Below are positions 6,364 to 19,871 of a stretch of 20,000 bases of DNA, in pieces. Origin of the DNA: Brevibacterium luteolum (GTDB lineage: Bacteria; Actinomycetota; Actinomycetes; Actinomycetales; Brevibacteriaceae). Position 1 is the stretch's first letter; each line of letters opens with the position of its first letter. Position numbers and translations under genes: made by a program. Where the stretch lies: contig NZ_JABEMC010000005.1 of assembly GCF_013004595.1 (NCBI RefSeq), positions 231,559 through 251,558 of the forward strand, read 5' to 3'. The notes beneath the pieces are model-generated. The model was given only the letters and a program-made list of their open reading frames with translations, ran no database searches and was not told the DNA's origin.

Positions 6364-6443
6364 GTGCATCGGCACAGCATTGCGGTTCGGATCTCATGTT
6401 TGTGCATCGGCACAGCTTCGCGGTTCGGATGTCACGTTTGTGC
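6364..6443 (+). promoter_or_regulatory. 38-bp tandem direct repeat with TGTGC-N4-GCACA-type palindromic cores; putative operator
   Basis: Units 6364-6401 and 6402-6439 are 34/38 identical; located in the divergent DUF819/MFS intergenic region. Confidence 0.65.
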
Positions 6444-7897: not shown

Positions 7898-7969
7898 GTC
7901 GATTGGCTCCGGCGGCCCGGGGGCTGCCGTTCCCGAGGCGGTGGCCGACGGCCGACGCTGCGCCCGGCG

Positions 7970-9220
7970 TCACGGCCCCAGCAGCGCAAGCGGCACAACG
8001 GCGATCCCATCGGGACGGCGGTATGCCGTCGTCCCTGTGGTGACGACCACGAGGTCTGCAATCCGGTCTGGAATCTGGTCGCGCAGCCACAGTAGATGTC
8101 TGACGTCTGCAGGGGAGACACTGGGCGTGAGTTTGACCTCGCAGCCGACGACCTGCCCATCGACGCCTTCGACGATGAGATCGACTTCGCGATCTCCGCC
8201 ATACATCCGCAGATGTCTCACGCGGGCTTCCGCGGCTTGAGCAGCGACTTTTACGCTCAATGTGACAAGCGATTCGAAGAGGGGACCCAGCATATGCGAA
8301 CCCGTTCTCCCTACCAGGGAACCAGCAGACAGGCCCAGCAGTCGTGCCGCCAGCGCAGGGTCGGCGAGATGGTGCTTGGGTGCTTCCTGGAGTCTGCGCA
8401 GATCATTGTGTGCTGGCAGCCAACCAGGAACCGGGTCGAGCAGCCACAGCCGGGTGAGGTGCTCCCGATACGCCATTGTGGTCGTCTTCGCCGGCTGTGA
8501 ACCGTCGCCTCCGGTGGTGGCATCGAGTATTTTCGAGTAGGCCGTCGTCGTGGACACAGCCGCCGCATAGGCGGCAAGCCACCGGCGCAGCACCTCTGGA
8601 CGACGCACACGAAAACCCGAATCCGGAAGCTCACGGTCGATGATTCTGTCGATGTAGGAGTCGAGCATTGCTCGTCTGACTCGCGGCGCGGCCGTCATGA
8701 CGCCCGGGAATCCACCAGCGGCGATGGACTCTGCATAGTCGGCGACGGTGAACTGGGACTCCCCTTCGATCGCGCGCTGCTCCCCGCTCAGCAACGCAGC
8801 CAACGACACGGTGGGTGTCACGGCGCCTCGCTCATGCAGCGCCATCGGCCGCATCCGGAGCGAGAGGATCCGTCCTGCTCCGCTATGCGTACCAGCGGCA
8901 TCCGTTGGAGTCGCCGACCCTGTCAGGAGAAACCGGCCGGGTTCAGCTCCGGCATCGACCCGCCGGCGGACTGCATCCCATACCTGCGGGAGCTTCTGCC
9001 ATTCATCGATGAGCAGCGTGCCTTGTGGCACTGCTGAAAAGGTGAAGTCGGCGGCGGCGATCTCTCGCTGCCCAGGGTCATCGAGCATCCACTCTGTGGA
9101 AGCCCGCCGAGAAGCGGTATCGGTCTTGCCGACGCCCTTGGGGCCGTCGATGGCGATAGCCGGCGCCATCGACATGAGATCGTCCAGCTCCGTATCAATC
9201 GTTCGACGCTGATAATCCAT
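7970..9220 (-). CDS. AAA_14 ATPase with DUF4143 and a C-terminal PD-(D/E)XK-like domain
   Basis: Walker A IDGPKGVGKT, Walker B LLIDEWQ, FLLTGSA, PKHHLADPAL, FESLV, REVDLIVE...CEVK; GAAAGGG RBS before ATG 9220. Confidence 0.9.
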   Translation of the reverse strand: MDYQRRTIDTELDDLMSMAPAIAIDGPKGVGKTDTASRRASTEWMLDDPGQREIAAADFTFSAVPQGTLLIDEWQKLPQVWDAVRRRVDAGAEPGRFLLTGSATPTDAAGTHSGAGRILSLRMRPMALHERGAVTPTVSLAALLSGEQRAIEGESQFTVADYAESIAAGGFPGVMTAAPRVRRAMLDSYIDRIIDRELPDSGFRVRRPEVLRRWLAAYAAAVSTTTAYSKILDATTGGDGSQPAKTTTMAYREHLTRLWLLDPVPGWLPAHNDLRRLQEAPKHHLADPALAARLLGLSAGSLVGRTGSHMLGPLFESLVTLSVKVAAQAAEARVRHLRMYGGDREVDLIVEGVDGQVVGCEVKLTPSVSPADVRHLLWLRDQIPDRIADLVVVTTGTTAYRRPDGIAVVPLALLGP

Positions 9221-9288
9221 GCACTGCCCTTTCCGCACTCTGCGCGATCACCCGCACTCGTTGCCCGAGTGCCAACGGCAGCCCGTTG

Positions 9289-9380
9289 ACACTACCATCT
9301 ACGACACTCGAACACTCCCTTACACGACACTTATACACTACCATCCACGATACCTGAACACTACCATTCACGATCGCACG
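9289..9380. repeat. Four tandem 23-bp degenerate direct repeats (core ACACTACCATYYACGA)
   Basis: Units start at 9289, 9312, 9335 and 9358. Confidence 0.9.
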
Positions 9381-9501
9381 TGAAGCGGTTCCGACCTGAA
9401 CCCAGAACAACCCGGATTCTCCATCCAGACGACGGCGGGCGCGCTGCGCGCCGGACGGCACGGCCCTGCACGCGGGCTGGAATCTGTGATTGAGTGTGGG
9501 T

Positions 9502-15516: not shown

Positions 15517-16569
15517 TCAGACCTCATCTGCCACTGACTCACCGTGACCTCCTTGCGTAAGCTCAGACATGGACCCGTAGAACCGTTCGACCGTGCGCCG
15601 CGCAGCCTGCTTGCCCGCTGTCGTGTAGAGACTCGTCACCGCGAGAGACGAGTGACCCATGAACTCGCGGACATCGTGGGCAGGGATACCGGCATCCAGC
15701 CACGCCGTCGCCGCGTGATGCCGCAAGTCGTGCCAGCGGAGACCCGGACGTACCTCGTCCCGCAGCTGTCGCCAACGCAGCTCGCGCGCCAAGTTCGACG
15801 GGTGCACCGGCTTACCAAGAGGACTCGTGCACATCAGCGTGCGCGGGTCTGCCGCAGCGAGGTCAACCCCGTGGGCCTCGATGCTATCCAGCAGCTCTGG
15901 CAGTATCGGCACGTAACGCGGCTTCCCGGACTTCGTTGTCACTCGGTGCCCTTGCCGGTCCAACTGCGCATTGACCAACAGCAACCGCCGTTCCAGCTCG
16001 GCCTGCCCAACTGTGACTGCGGTAGCTTCCGAGAGCCGCAGCCCGGCGTATGCCATGAACCCGAACAGCAGCCGATAGCGGCGCGGGACCACCGTAAATA
16101 GCTGCGACAACTGCGTTTCTGTCAGCGCGTACGAGTCACGCGGTTCCGCCTTCTGCCGGGGCAGCTCAATCTGCTTCGCAGGATTCGCCCATATCAACCG
16201 TTCGCGCACCGCCCGCTGAAGAATGCGCGAGAGCACAGCCCTCGCATCCGTCTTAGTCGAACGAGCCCCTGACCACGAGAAGTACGCGTCCTCAATATCC
16301 ATCGGTGACAGCTCATCCAGCCGATAATCACCCAGCGACGGACGGACGCGCAGCCGCCAGCCAATTTCGTATGACGTCCGTGTTGACTTCGAGACCTGAC
16401 GGAGCACCGCAGGCAGATGCTCAGCGCCAAAATCTGCGAGAGTTGGTAAGGTCGCCGCTCGTGTCCCTTTTAGTGTTTGCTCATCGACTCGGGTGAGGGC
16501 ACCCGGCAAAATGCTGCGCATTTCACCGGCTATCGACACGGCCCCGGTCATTCGCTCTGCCGCACCCAC
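15517..16569 (-). CDS. Tyrosine recombinase/integrase
   Basis: AGLRLSE (R), TKSGK (K), WHDLRH (HxxR), MGHSSLAVTSLY (H, Y): full catalytic set; start at 16569 or 16551. Confidence 0.95.
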   Translation of the reverse strand: MGAAERMTGAVSIAGEMRSILPGALTRVDEQTLKGTRAATLPTLADFGAEHLPAVLRQVSKSTRTSYEIGWRLRVRPSLGDYRLDELSPMDIEDAYFSWSGARSTKTDARAVLSRILQRAVRERLIWANPAKQIELPRQKAEPRDSYALTETQLSQLFTVVPRRYRLLFGFMAYAGLRLSEATAVTVGQAELERRLLLVNAQLDRQGHRVTTKSGKPRYVPILPELLDSIEAHGVDLAAADPRTLMCTSPLGKPVHPSNLARELRWRQLRDEVRPGLRWHDLRHHAATAWLDAGIPAHDVREFMGHSSLAVTSLYTTAGKQAARRTVERFYGSMSELTQGGHGESVADEV

Positions 16570-16607
16570 AGCAGACTCCCGTCCTCAAATTTCCCCATGA
16601 GGTTGCG

Positions 16608-16727
16608 TGTCAACGACGGCTGAATTTTGACCCCTTAGCGACGGCTGAATTTTGACCCCCTGTTGTTGTGGTTGTGTTGGTTTCAGTCGTTTTCGGTTAG
16701 TAGTTCGCGGCGTGTTTTGGTGCGGTA
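16608..16727 (-). mobile_element. IS21-family right-end remnant (terminal TGT, two 21-bp repeats, probable istB 3' tail)
   Basis: TGTCAA at 16608; CGACGGCTGAATTTTGACCCC at 16614-16634 and 16639-16659; YRTKTRRELL tail resembles actinobacterial IstB C-termini. Confidence 0.8.
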
Positions 16728-17252
16728 GGTCGCCACATGGACGCGGTTGGCGCAGTTGCGCAGGTCGCAGAATCGCTTCGACTTGTTCTTTGTCAGATCA
16801 GCGAGCGCCGCGGTGCAGTCGTCCGCCGCACAGGTGCGGAGACGTCCCAGGTCGCCTGAGCGGATCAGGTCGGTCAGCACCAGTGCAATGTCAGAGGCGA
16901 CGCGCTCGCCCAGAGGAGCGGCGTTCCCCGCTGCGTGCAGATGCCAATCCCACTCGTCGTGACGCACAAGTTGCGGGAACGTGCGGATCTCTCGGAATGT
17001 CGCGTTGATCGCGTCGACCACCGCGGTCACATCATCGTCTAGAACGACTCGGAAGCGCTCACGCATTGTCGCTACCGCAGCGACATCGAACGCTGAGGCC
17101 TCCAACGACCCGGTGAAGTCATGCACAGTGACGAAGCGCTCCAGTTCCTCCGGTGCGGCGAGCCGATCGTCCGGGCCCCTCACTCCGGGCCCGGTGTTCA
17201 ACAGATCGACCAGCATGGACAGGTTCGCCCGAACATCGTGACTGAAGCGCAT
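16683..17252 (-). CDS. CGNR zinc finger / ABATE domain protein (putative regulator)
   Basis: DLLNT, PQLVRHD..DWHLH, RLRTC-x4-C...D.TKNKSKRFC-x4-CANR; TAACAT -10 box 6 nt before the ATG (leaderless). Confidence 0.9.
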   Translation of the reverse strand: MRFSHDVRANLSMLVDLLNTGPGVRGPDDRLAAPEELERFVTVHDFTGSLEASAFDVAAVATMRERFRVVLDDDVTAVVDAINATFREIRTFPQLVRHDEWDWHLHAAGNAAPLGERVASDIALVLTDLIRSGDLGRLRTCAADDCTAALADLTKNKSKRFCDLRNCANRVHVATYRTKTRRELLTEND

Positions 17253-17292
17253 ACCTCTATGTTACCCGAGTGAGACCGGAGGCTACCAGCTT

Positions 17293-17360
17293 ATAGACAG
17301 TGTTTTTACGGCTTCTGATAGAATACAAACAGTGTCTATCAGTTAATAGTCACTGTCTAT
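17293..17360. promoter_or_regulatory. Nested inverted repeats in the AT-rich divergent promoter region (putative operator)
   Basis: ATAGACAGTG(17293-17302)/CACTGTCTAT(17351-17360); CTGATAGA(17315-17322)/TCTATCAG(17335-17342). Confidence 0.6.
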
Positions 17361-18414
17361 GTCAGCTCGAAGGGATGGTTCTGTGCACTATCGCGTGGTG
17401 GCTGGGTTCGTGTTCATGCTGGCCTCGGCGTTTTTCTTCGCCGTGTCCGGCCCGGTGGCCAAGGCCCTCTACGAGATCGGCTGGACGCCCGGCTCGGTGG
17501 TGCTGACCAGGCTGACCGGCGCAGCACTGATCCTCCTGATTCCCACCCTGATCGCCCTGCGAGGGCTCTGGGGCGAGGTGCGACGCAACTGGAAGCCGAT
17601 CGCTGTCTACGGCGTGGTCTCGATGGCCGGGGTGCAGGCGTTCTTCTTCCTCGCCGTTGAACACCTCAGCGTCGCCGTTGCCGTGCTGCTGGAAGTGATG
17701 GGTGCCCCGTTGATCGTGGTGTTCTGGCTGTGGGCACGCACGCGCCAGCGCCCCAGCGCGGTAACGGGCATCGGGGTCGTCATCTCGCTGATTGGTGTGG
17801 TGCTGGTGCTGGACTTCCAGAACTCGTCACTGAGCTGGTTCGGGGTCTTCATGGCCGTCGGTGCGGCAGCGTGCTTCGCGTTCTACTTCCTCATGGCCGC
17901 CAACCAGACCATCGAGATACCACCCATCGCATTCACCGGACTGGGTATGAGCGCGGGCGCGCTCGCCGCGCTCATCATCAATCTCAGTCAGGTCATGCCT
18001 GCCCAGTTTGCCAACGCCAGCGTAGACTTCGCGGGCACGCGCATGTCCTGGTTCATTCCCGCCCTCCTGCTGGTTGTGTTCACCGTCGGGGCGTACGTCT
18101 GCGGGTTCCTCGGCCTGCGCTACCTCGGAGCCACCGTGGGATCGTTCGTGAACCTCACCGAAGTGCCCGCCTCAGCCATTGCCGCATTCATCCTCCTCGG
18201 CGAACTCCTCACCCGGCAGCAATTCCTCGGCGGAGGCATCATCCTCGCCGGAATCGCACTCGTCAAATGGGGTGACCTGAAGGCACAGCCGCGACAAGAG
18301 CCGCCCAAAAGAGTGACACTCCAAGAGGGCGACGCGGACACCAGCACACGCGCCACGACCGCTCCACTCACGACGCTTCCGACCCCGTCCGACAAATACC
18401 TCAACGGCTCTTAG
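17359..18414 (+). CDS. EamA/DMT family transporter
   Basis: About 10 TM helices in two repeats; SGPVAKAL..GWTP, VQAFFFLAVEHLSVAVAVLLE, SFVNLTEV, LLGE motifs. Confidence 0.92.
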   Translation: MSARRDGSVHYRVVAGFVFMLASAFFFAVSGPVAKALYEIGWTPGSVVLTRLTGAALILLIPTLIALRGLWGEVRRNWKPIAVYGVVSMAGVQAFFFLAVEHLSVAVAVLLEVMGAPLIVVFWLWARTRQRPSAVTGIGVVISLIGVVLVLDFQNSSLSWFGVFMAVGAAACFAFYFLMAANQTIEIPPIAFTGLGMSAGALAALIINLSQVMPAQFANASVDFAGTRMSWFIPALLLVVFTVGAYVCGFLGLRYLGATVGSFVNLTEVPASAIAAFILLGELLTRQQFLGGGIILAGIALVKWGDLKAQPRQEPPKRVTLQEGDADTSTRATTAPLTTLPTPSDKYLNGS

Positions 18415-18681
18415 CCTCGATCCACCGCTATAAGGGGCTTCGTTGAGAATTCGGGCAAGGACTTTGCGCTGGCCCGGCGACAGATCAGCCACGTTCTTGC
18501 CTTCGCAGGCCAGCGCCCACCACACCGTGTTCTTCATCGCGCACGCGCCGCACGTCCGTGGCGAGACCACGCCGAACTCGCCCATACGCGGAGGGAAGTC
18601 CCAGCCTGCGCTATAGGCCTCATCCGGGGTCAGCACGGCGCTTGTGCTGCACACCTCGCACCAGTGCTCGAATGGGTCCAT
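18172..18681 (-). CDS. Small CxxC...CxxC putative zinc-binding protein; plausible core about 18435-18681, the rest looks like read-through
   Basis: HWCEVC...AGWDFPPRMG.FGVVSPRTCGAC...WWAL; TAACGT -10 box 6 nt before the ATG; the 3' half overlaps eamA antisense by 243 nt. Confidence 0.65.
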   Translation of the reverse strand: MDPFEHWCEVCSTSAVLTPDEAYSAGWDFPPRMGEFGVVSPRTCGACAMKNTVWWALACEGKNVADLSPGQRKVLARILNEAPYSGGSRLRAVEVFVGRGRKRREWSGRGACAGVRVALLECHSFGRLLSRLCLQVTPFDECDSGEDDASAEELLPGEEFAEEDECGNG

Positions 18682-18722
18682 ACGGCCACGTTATCGCCAC
18701 AGGGGGCACTCTGCTGTTCCGG

Positions 18723-19553
18723 TTAGGGCTCCGACCCCGAGGCATAGACGCCGTGGAAGAACACTTCCCGATGGATAGCCAGCGCCTCATCCATGCTCAT
18801 GCACGCCAGGCCCGCGGGTTCGTCACTGAGACTCATCGCGTGCGCCTTGGCCCAGGCACGCCGCTGCTCCTGGAAGAACTTCCGCCGCAGCACAGTCCAC
18901 CCCTTCGACCGCGAGACCGCATGAGAACCGGCACCCATCGACCGATGCCGCCGATGACCACAATCTCGCCCATGACACTCCCGCGTGCACGCCATCTCAT
19001 CCCGCGCAGCACGGGTGAGAGTATCCGCATGGGCTACAGCCTCCGGCGACCGGTTCGATACCGCCTCAGCGGCCAGGTCTTTCGCCACGTAACCGAGCAC
19101 CTTGCCGAGATAGCTGATCGCCCGGCGGGCCTGGTCCGGCTCAATCCCCAGAATCCGAGCGTCAACCTGGCGTCCCCACCGGACTACCGAATCATCCACC
19201 GCGCTAGAGGCCACCACCCCGGCACACGTATCTTCCAGCAGCGACACCAACGACGACCGCGACACAGACAGGTGCTCAATCCGCAGCAGCACATGGAAGT
19301 GCAGGACACCCCTCACCTGCCACTCACGGACAGCGCCATAGTCGAACCGATCAGGCAACGCACGGCGCAGCGCAATCTGCGTATACCGCCACAACTCGCT
19401 CACATCACGGTTGAACCTGACCTGCCCGGCATAGTCGTAGGCCTTGGCATCGACCGGCACCCCACGCAGCACCCGCTCACTCTCGCTATGCCGACGCCCG
19501 CACGCGCACCGCTTCGCCGCCTGGCCTGGCTTCGGTACACGATGAACCTTCCC
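18723..19553 (-). pseudogene. RepSA-family (pSAM2/AICE) HUH rolling-circle replication initiator, 3' part; interrupted by IS3
   Basis: GKVH, CACGRRH, G.PVD..AYDY.GQV.FN, EWQVRGVLHFHVLLR (HUH), WGRQVD, YVAK; the junction at 19553/19554 coincides with an IS end. Confidence 0.85.
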
Positions 19554-19871
19554 TGAACCGTCCTGGGTTTCGTTCCTAGATGGTTGGTAAAGACAGTTCA
19601 TCGTTGGTGAGGCTTTCGGCGTATTGGGCTTCGACTTCTGCTGGTGTCTTGTAGCCCAGTGCTTCGTGCAGCCGGGTGGTGTTCCACCAGTGGACCCAGT
19701 TCATGGTCGCGAACTCGACATCGGTCAGGCTGTTCCAGGCCGGCTGGGAGTAGATCAACTCGGCCTTGTACAGGCCGTTGACGGTTTCGGCGAGGGCATT
19801 GTCGTAGCTATCGCCGACTGTTCCGACTGATGGGGTGATTCCTGCGGTGATGAGGCGTTCAGTGTAGGCAA
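19554..19871 (-). mobile_element. IS3-family element A (IS51/IS6110-like): right end and 3' part of orfB
   Basis: Terminal TGAACCGTCCTGGG at 19554; the transposase stop lies at 19576, just inside the end. Confidence 0.88.
19576..19871 (-). pseudogene. IS3 DDE transposase C-terminal fragment
   Basis: AYTERL...SVGTVGDSYDNALAETVNGLYKAELI...WVHWWNTTRLHEALGYKTP; the expected upstream HSDxGSQY motif is missing. Confidence 0.9.

Follow-up and report, generated by a model that had tools for sequence, protein, structure and literature searches.

Upstream of a solitary gene for a predicted ATPase-nuclease in Brevibacterium luteolum lies a tandem array of four 23-bp units, and the question that this locus raises is what the array is for. 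The window, a 20,000-nucleotide stretch of DNA, carries the gene on the minus strand (7970..9220), followed toward higher positions by two hairpins and then by the array (9289..9380, minus strand). An initial annotation proposed that the array is an iteron-like loading site for the encoded protein, serving autoregulation, self-marking or mobility, or else is transcribed as a structured repeat leader. The analyses described below, of the protein, of the DNA and of homologous loci, suggest that this member of a known family is likely to possess a self-operator read by two domains of its own product.

The 416-residue gene product contains AAA_14 (E 1e-11) and DUF4143 (E 5e-19) matches in Pfam, united in one single-gene product of the COG1373 type, and it matches the PADLOC PDC-S01 model PDLC04790 over residues 2-414 (E 4e-76). 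The initial annotation could name no function for this family; the gene is the PADLOC phage-defence candidate PDC-S01, and 82 of 82 aligned proteins match the same model. Translation starts with the ATG at 9220, judging from the starts of close homologues; the start at 9238 given by the ORF finder lies six codons too early by the same comparison and was rejected. The gene is single-copy in its own genome (G000), and Brevibacterium records include proteins 100% and 98% identical to its product. Its third-position GC content of 0.68, against 0.87-0.93 in the flanking genes, points to horizontal gain. The family is patchily distributed, being found in 13 of 41 relatives, 32 of 201 genomes of the phylum and 79 of 401 genomes of the order (E 1e-90).

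In an AlphaFold2 model of the protein (pLDDT 94), an AAA+ domain is followed by a bundle of three helices and then by an alpha/beta domain at the C-terminus. The Walker A codons (G26-T33) occupy 9122..9145 on the minus strand, with G26, G31 and K32 present in 124 of 124 clade members; Walker A/B and D347 are invariant in the same 124, and K363 and E316 are each retained in 123. Structural searches with residues 1-296 gave archaeal 2qen as the best match (Z 14.8, rmsd 5.1, 257 aligned) and 2fna as the second (Z 14.2, rmsd 4.1, 251 aligned), with NLR/STAND proteins ranking below them; Foldseek matches include ORC/Cdc6. Residues 208-285 (8366..8599, minus strand), modelled as helices 208-220, 228-236 and 245-257 followed by short strands, form in our reading a predicted winged helix, on the strength of this layout and of the fold matches. 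The C-terminal domain (7973..8323, minus strand) has an intact E316, D347, E361 and K363 and resembles McrC (Z 8.9, rmsd 3.6, 112 aligned), Can2 (Z 8.5) and a NucS-type enzyme (Z 8.4); PD-(D/E)XK nucleases, including Can1 and many restriction enzymes, make up most of the 50 structural matches listed for it. By its model the window protein has the fold and the catalytic residues of a PD-(D/E)XK nuclease. Sequence searches for a solved structure of a relative found none.

Published accounts of the family, as far as their text was covered, are brief about function. PDC-S01, an ATPase fused to PD-(D/E)XK, is ranked as the fourth most common prokaryotic defence system in a source portion that describes most PDCs as untested (PMC12988326), and the function of the family is given as 'Unknown' in the covered part of PMC3424549. 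According to the accessible text, PDCs entered PADLOC untested (10.1101/2024.01.29.577857), and one PDC-S01 coding sequence, cloned without its promoter, is not among the systems that a second paper reports as protective in E. coli against T4, T5 and T7 (10.1101/2024.09.26.614923). Part of another source records a Thermus AAA_14/DUF4143 gene that is up 6.6-fold when a plasmid and Argonaute are both present (PMC4406477). Within the portions of the family literature covered, which include PMC13356809, 10.64898/2026.10.19.760177 and few subscription papers, we found no description of an array, a residue code, DNA specificity or autoregulation.

The array itself is regular. Each of its four 23-bp units consists of an about 17-bp bipartite box and a free linker, and repeat finding, covariation and a genome matrix scan together make it a likely operator. 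Tandem Repeats Finder reports 9289-9373 with a period of 23, 3.7 copies, no indels and a score of 100, and the periodicity score of 33 exceeds that of 60 out of 60 dinucleotide shuffles, so that the four units and their exact 23-nt period stand as first described. The array is also AT-richer than its surroundings, as had been noticed, with a GC content of 48% against 63-69% in the adjacent genes; the flank upstream of the array is GC-rich. On the coding strand, TGGTAGTGT appears in three units; the third unit (9312-9334) deviates. With a box matrix built from eight other loci that have like residues in the protein, three of the four window units top the 2.97-Mb genome, and the third unit is outscored by 30 other genome sites. 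A possible decayed fifth box, a weak candidate by matrix score, lies over the ribosome-binding site and start codon (9220..9236, minus strand); about one genome position in 10,000 scores as high, and the box is one base out of phase. Reading the 68-nt spacer between array and start codon as three decayed units was rejected, the first unit failing at the 12% level and the others being weak.

Does the array belong to the gene? We called an array where the 200 nt preceding the gene contained a tandem period that beat 60 of 60 shuffles. A first sample of 100 full-length genes with a start (four more lacked one) was reduced to 82 by excluding seven found by DNA pattern, six with short flanks and five duplicates; a tandem period occurs upstream in 58 of these 82 loci (23 in 50, 22 in 4), compared with three downstream and one inside the gene. 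The second sample, after removal of six loci for start or flank and 13 duplicates, has arrays upstream in 73 of 87 (period 23 in 72), downstream in seven of 85 and inside the gene in none of 87. Overall, 131 of 169 non-redundant homologues carry an upstream array (period 23 in 122) versus 10 of 167 with one downstream, and a significant array is absent from 38 of the 169. No period of 22-24 scoring at least 12 was found in 32 Fic/RhuM control loci; three Fic loci (L269, L279 and L280) have 40-42-bp upstream repeats of their own.

The association also holds in the reverse direction. Searching with a two-unit pattern returned 14 matches, nine of them with the gene or a fragment directly downstream (about five distinct loci); of the others, two end too soon and three are orphans. 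An empty allele (L120), with flanking genes that are 96-98% identical, is without gene, array and hairpins. The array does not follow the divergent ThDP gene, a possibility raised in the initial annotation: among 30 ThDP loci, boxes occur in three of three with the ATPase and in none of 27 without it. These results confirm that the array belongs to the ATPase-nuclease gene, and the three computable tests that had been set for a loading site, namely arrays upstream of homologues, covariation with the protein (below) and independence of the ThDP gene, all speak for the array as the protein's likely loading site. One orphan array (L084), nearly identical to that of L154 and behind a similar PLP-enzyme gene, has no ATPase gene in the next 972 nt and is likely the product of gene loss. 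Within arrays, identity is 40-54% at the five linker positions and 70-94% at positions 5-20, where it forms two peaks; because conserved box peaks alternate with a free linker, the array would be a protein site and not a minisatellite.

What, then, sets the specificity of the box? Among the first 33 arrays, box similarity beyond protein identity is highest for residues 231-250 (P 0.008 by permutation across all residue windows); the turn and helix give P 0.006, and the whole winged-helix domain taken as one block gives P 0.06. An unbiased mutual-information scan covered 416 residues and 23 box positions (9,568 pairs) in the 113 of 124 clade proteins whose array has a period of 23 with P no higher than 0.1, one of them (L025) set by hand. 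The top pairs are residue 340 with box position 8 (z 23), 245 with 13 (z 14), 246 with 17 (z 11) and 343 with 5 (z 9), followed by 340 with 7 and 246 with 18. Arginine or lysine at residue 340 goes with C8 (56 of 57 loci, against 11 of 51 otherwise), histidine with C7-G8, and tyrosine, leucine, isoleucine or valine mostly with T8. Residue 343 as arginine goes with G5 and as aspartate or glutamate with C5; R245 accompanies T13 in 26 of 30 loci and K245 accompanies G13 in 57 of 59; threonine or serine at 246 goes with G17 and proline with A17-A18. Several of these rules fit the usual preferences of arginine and lysine for guanine, of aspartate and glutamate for cytosine and of hydrophobic side chains for thymine.

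The residues concerned fall in two places. Codons 244-246 (8483..8491, minus strand) lie where the predicted recognition helix begins and vary with box positions 13-18, and codons 340-343 (8192..8203, minus strand), in a hairpin loop of the nuclease domain, vary with positions 5-9; in the AlphaFold2 model, residues 245-246 open the third helix and residues 340-343 form the loop joining the first two strands of the nuclease domain. The covariation with the central helical domain that the initial annotation had named as a check is found at residues 244-246. The apparent reading of half the box by the nuclease domain was absent from that annotation. We infer that reading of the box is divided, its 3' half falling to the predicted recognition helix and its 5' half to the nuclease hairpin loop, about one helical turn apart. 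What is new, to judge from covariation, is a probable residue-to-base code that links two parts of the protein to the two halves of the box.

Several controls bear on this code. The rule for residue 245, spotted in the first sample, holds in the second alone (23 of 26 and 34 of 36), and the links persist under three other register settings, including alignment on the other box half or on the start codon. Odds ratios for the matching pairs are 185 and 204, compared with 3.1 and 1.7 for the crossed pairs; because each residue predicts its own box half only, joint inheritance does not explain the pattern. On a FastTree phylogeny built without the code columns, K/R245 changed at least 14 times and residue 340 at least 24 times. 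In independent pairs on well-supported branches the box changed the same way as residue 245 in 5.7 of 6 (p 0.03) and as residue 340 in 5.2 of 7 (p 0.06), with an average of 0.0 going the opposite way for both; the smaller residue classes give too few independent pairs.

Eight residues place a protein's own array at a median rank of 4-5 of 113, also when relatives more than 62% identical are excluded, in a non-nested comparison for which the residue/position pairs were chosen on all data; the nearest-protein baseline there ranks 36 and entropy-matched control residues 34-65. Nested cross-validation by protein cluster gives a median rank of 7 of 113, with the identical five pairs selected in six of six folds. 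The window array ranks only 47 of 113 in this nested cross-validation because Y340 is rare, and its box position 5 is T, against the D343 rule (C5). The box predicted for a held-out Chlorobi plasmid gene finds three units at -107, -84 and -61, and that predicted for a second held-out gene with a degenerate helix (L293) finds no clear match, so that the code predicted one of two held-out loci. L293 is a PDC-S01 gene divergent from a type I-U cas3, with only weak 23-bp repeats upstream.

The array could also consist of tandem promoters or bind a regulator of the host, its match to the protein reflecting joint inheritance only. This explanation would account for the extended -10 motif in the units and for the rise of box similarity with overall protein identity (Spearman 0.45), yet the boxes of same-genome paralogues are no more alike than their protein identity predicts (0.40 vs 0.41 expected, 22 pairs). 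Moreover, the signal sits on few residues, dissociates doubly and reappears on different branches of the tree; in distant clades, K340 proteins (L077 and L109, 28% identical) have the 5' half of the box in common with K340 proteins of the close clade; and the code held in another phylum, the Chlorobi. We therefore consider this explanation highly improbable. Mutual exclusion of codes between paralogues was considered as a separate signal and rejected: no code is common to both members of any of the 46 pairs, yet just 1.2-2.0 such pairs would be expected (P 0.27). On the covariation evidence, box specificity appears to be set by the encoded protein.

The position of the arrays suggests what such binding would do. 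With start codons chosen by protein alignment, the array ends at most 7 nt from the start codon in 68 of 113 loci, and 62 of these 68 have TAnnnT at -14 to -12 (background 0.6%); 28 more arrays end one unit earlier, with the hexamer there in 17. An array that ends beside the start with a -10 hexamer would therefore cover the -10 and -35 regions. In 62 of the 113 loci the last unit would be the -10 element of a leaderless gene, and the repeats appear to overlap the gene's own promoter; the extended -10 reading that was first noticed in three window units accordingly corresponds to a -10 element in the last unit of most relatives. Part of the conservation of the box presumably reflects promoter function, since the box contains the -10 hexamer. 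Eleven loci, the window among them, have a longer gap, and because the window's array ends 68 nt before the start codon the position of its promoter is an assumption: an extended -10-like element in the gene-proximal unit (9289..9297, minus strand) falls at the same box positions as the -10 hexamer of leaderless relatives, from which we predict a transcription start near 9282 and a leader of about 62 nt. A sigma-70 promoter and terminator scan of the window found nothing.

Are the hairpins part of the same system? Both are present in the window as originally described, a 6-bp hairpin at 9273..9288 and a 7-bp hairpin at 9254..9272 in the predicted leader, neither assigned to a strand. The former is broken by three non-compensatory changes in the 98%-identical relative L024 and by one change in run X16; the latter is unchanged in L024 and L027 and was not seen in other homologues. 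A stem of at least 6 bp occurs in three of 11 loci with a gap of at least 35 nt before the start, compared with 14% of random 68-mers, in a count that took in the window's first hairpin incompletely because of where the scanned stretch ended; the two stems together arise in 0.3% of random 68-mers, a point in favour of the window hairpins. The hairpins are real in the window and are no feature of the family.

That repeats and hairpins form a structured RNA leader or a small RNA, as initially offered as one option, gains something from the predicted 68-nt leader, which folds better than 196 of 200 shuffles (z -2.15) and pairs the ribosome-binding site. The leader of L024, however, folds differently, the array region as a whole gives z -1.3, no Rfam match was found, and in most relatives the array would precede the transcription start of an apparently leaderless gene. 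With the linker positions free and the hairpins unconserved as well, we regard an RNA function as extremely improbable. The array belongs to no known RNA family and has no conserved pairing of the sort that would mark a CRISPR or a structured RNA array.

Nor does the box appear to label DNA at large. A mark of self DNA throughout the genome, or a restriction-type target on invaders, would make sense of sequence-specific reading joined to a restriction-fold nuclease. Against genome-wide marking, the genome of the window contains no further array, its other single sites score below three of the four units, and no match to a locus's own box was found elsewhere at the 113 loci; against a restriction target, the box is too long, so that its chance occurrence on phage would be too rare, IMG/VR yielded one two-unit match, and most loci are without a methylase partner. 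Either role seems scarcely credible. The IMG/VR match (L097, 269-306, with 23-bp spacing) lies on a viral contig of 5.4 kb that lacks the gene; a nearby ORF looks WhiB-like, and the match may be chance, an orphan or a decoy. No close relative of the protein was found in IMG/VR; the family search returned 88 plasmids and, from the phage set, four short records that carry no annotation.

A more substantial rival makes the array mainly a substrate: the protein would dock, nick or cut beside it, and recombination would copy the array-plus-gene cassette, with repression a side effect. Tracking of half the box by the nuclease domain would bring its intact active site to the array, and several copy pairs that are 82-90% identical have only the array and the ORF in common. 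The low third-position GC content of the gene fits a mobile history, as does the finding that none of 85 flanking ORFs scanned is an integrase or transposase, and long flanking direct repeats occur at 12 of 163 loci against three of 2,050 G000 ORFs. Such repeats are nevertheless present in one of 32 Fic/RhuM controls (P 0.7 vs the family), so that this footprint may not be special to the family, and as a family-specific mark of mobility we rejected it. The 46 paralogue pairs within single genomes are 43-67% identical, with no near-identical copies, a box at the downstream end occurs at none of 113 loci, and ordinary homologous recombination by allele replacement yields equally sharp borders. 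The sites at both ends and near-identical copies of a transposon or insertion sequence are absent. On balance we judge a primarily recombinogenic array unlikely and prefer the reading of the array as an operator.

In the window itself, a degenerate direct repeat of about 37 bp has its upstream copy at the empty-allele junction (9429..9466, minus strand) and its downstream copy over the stop codon (7942..7978, minus strand), a possible long target duplication. The pair is weak, an equal score being found in 1% of G000 genes; the copies match each other with a shuffle P of 0.0005 for a pair chosen after the fact, and compared with the empty allele the downstream copy gives P 0.018 and the upstream copy P 0.19.

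Neighbouring DNA offered further observations. Among 121 flanking ORFs from 49 loci, chosen by a codon heuristic with shadow frames included, 12 match PADLOC models, about five convincingly, and the neighbours are mostly housekeeping genes. Next to PDC-S01 cassettes of distant clades lies the ychF 3' end, complete or reduced to a short remnant, upstream in L028, L034, L041 and L011 and downstream in L034 and L039; ychF is likely an insertion hotspot at which the gene tail is duplicated. The L165 gene resembles the copies at one site by 89% yet occupies the site of copies that it resembles by just 81% (compared with L160-L163 and with L166, L169 and L172), which is allele replacement between cassettes. 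About 6 kb from the array gene, a tyrosine integrase (15517-16569), a pSAM2-type RepSA (18723-19601) and the cargo between them make window positions 15517-19601 an actinomycete integrative element. A 38-bp tandem duplication lies upstream of an MFS gene (6364-6443).

These lines of evidence converge on a model of graded certainty. The encoded protein very probably binds the array directly, and it quite probably represses its own gene; that the array is an operator of its own protein, covering the promoter and restraining an ATP-dependent nuclease with an intact active-site motif, is our favoured and probable reading. Points against it include the absence of the one coding sequence from the protective systems of the published E. 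coli test and the mostly housekeeping neighbours. One protein molecule would sit on each 23-bp unit, head to tail, with a rotation of about 69 degrees between successive molecules (23 bp, taking 10.5 bp per helical turn), and the two reading heads on a box may come from one molecule or from neighbours. Bound protein would occlude RNA polymerase at its own promoter, closing a negative feedback loop, and binding to the array would park the nuclease. A speculative extension, quite possible if somewhat less so than its opposite, is that the protein is freed or activated when foreign DNA arrives or the array is lost, and that it then cuts DNA, giving defence or addiction. Rather unlikely in our estimate, and bolder, is that PDC-S01 is a one-gene selfish and defensive element with DNA as its 'antitoxin', a head-to-tail polymer that is silent on its private 23-bp array, which two domains read by a small code open to recoding, and whose nuclease is unleashed by array loss or foreign DNA and whose cuts at or near the array spread the cassette.

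Were this last proposal true, PDC-S01 would stand for a conflict system of a new kind and one of the commonest that prokaryotes have; it would also be a programmable DNA binder of natural origin. More immediately, the code provides a candidate DNA ligand together with the residues likely to read it, and it suggests that a test of the coding sequence alone may miss the function of PDC-S01 because the native operator is omitted. A restriction-fold domain and a winged helix that together read a tandem array, with specificity recoded many times by single residues, would make a clean natural system for the study of protein-DNA recognition.

How does this locus compare with known systems? The window protein is a member of PADLOC PDC-S01 (AAA_14 + DUF4143; COG1373), and the published text covered for PDC-S01 is silent on arrays upstream of the gene, on DNA specificity and on autoregulation. 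For omega repressor, C proteins and methylase autorepression, the covered part of PMC3874152 describes specificity groups and a cooperative mode of binding to repeats that lie in the system's own promoter. Those systems use a separate regulator or antitoxin, whereas here regulator and nuclease are one chain, and, unlike in those systems, the nuclease domain would, judging from covariation, supply half of the specificity. Restriction-modification genes inserted with long target duplications, as the available text of PMC2853133 describes them, have variable repeats of more than 30 bp round a nuclease cassette without a mobility gene; the present family is without a methylase, and its repeats may not exceed those of other solo accessory genes. 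The archaeal STAND-like ATPases PAB2304 (2qen) and SSO1545 (2fna), the best structural matches to residues 1-296, match at 16% identity and stop before the nuclease domain, and a common fold shows no function. The AAA+ plus winged-helix fold is also that of Orc1/Cdc6. Orc1/Cdc6 and plasmid Rep-iteron systems have repeated boxes beside their own gene and two-part DNA reading. Compared with both, the window protein carries a C-terminal nuclease domain, its array would lie over the promoter, and its site is chromosomal, between housekeeping genes.
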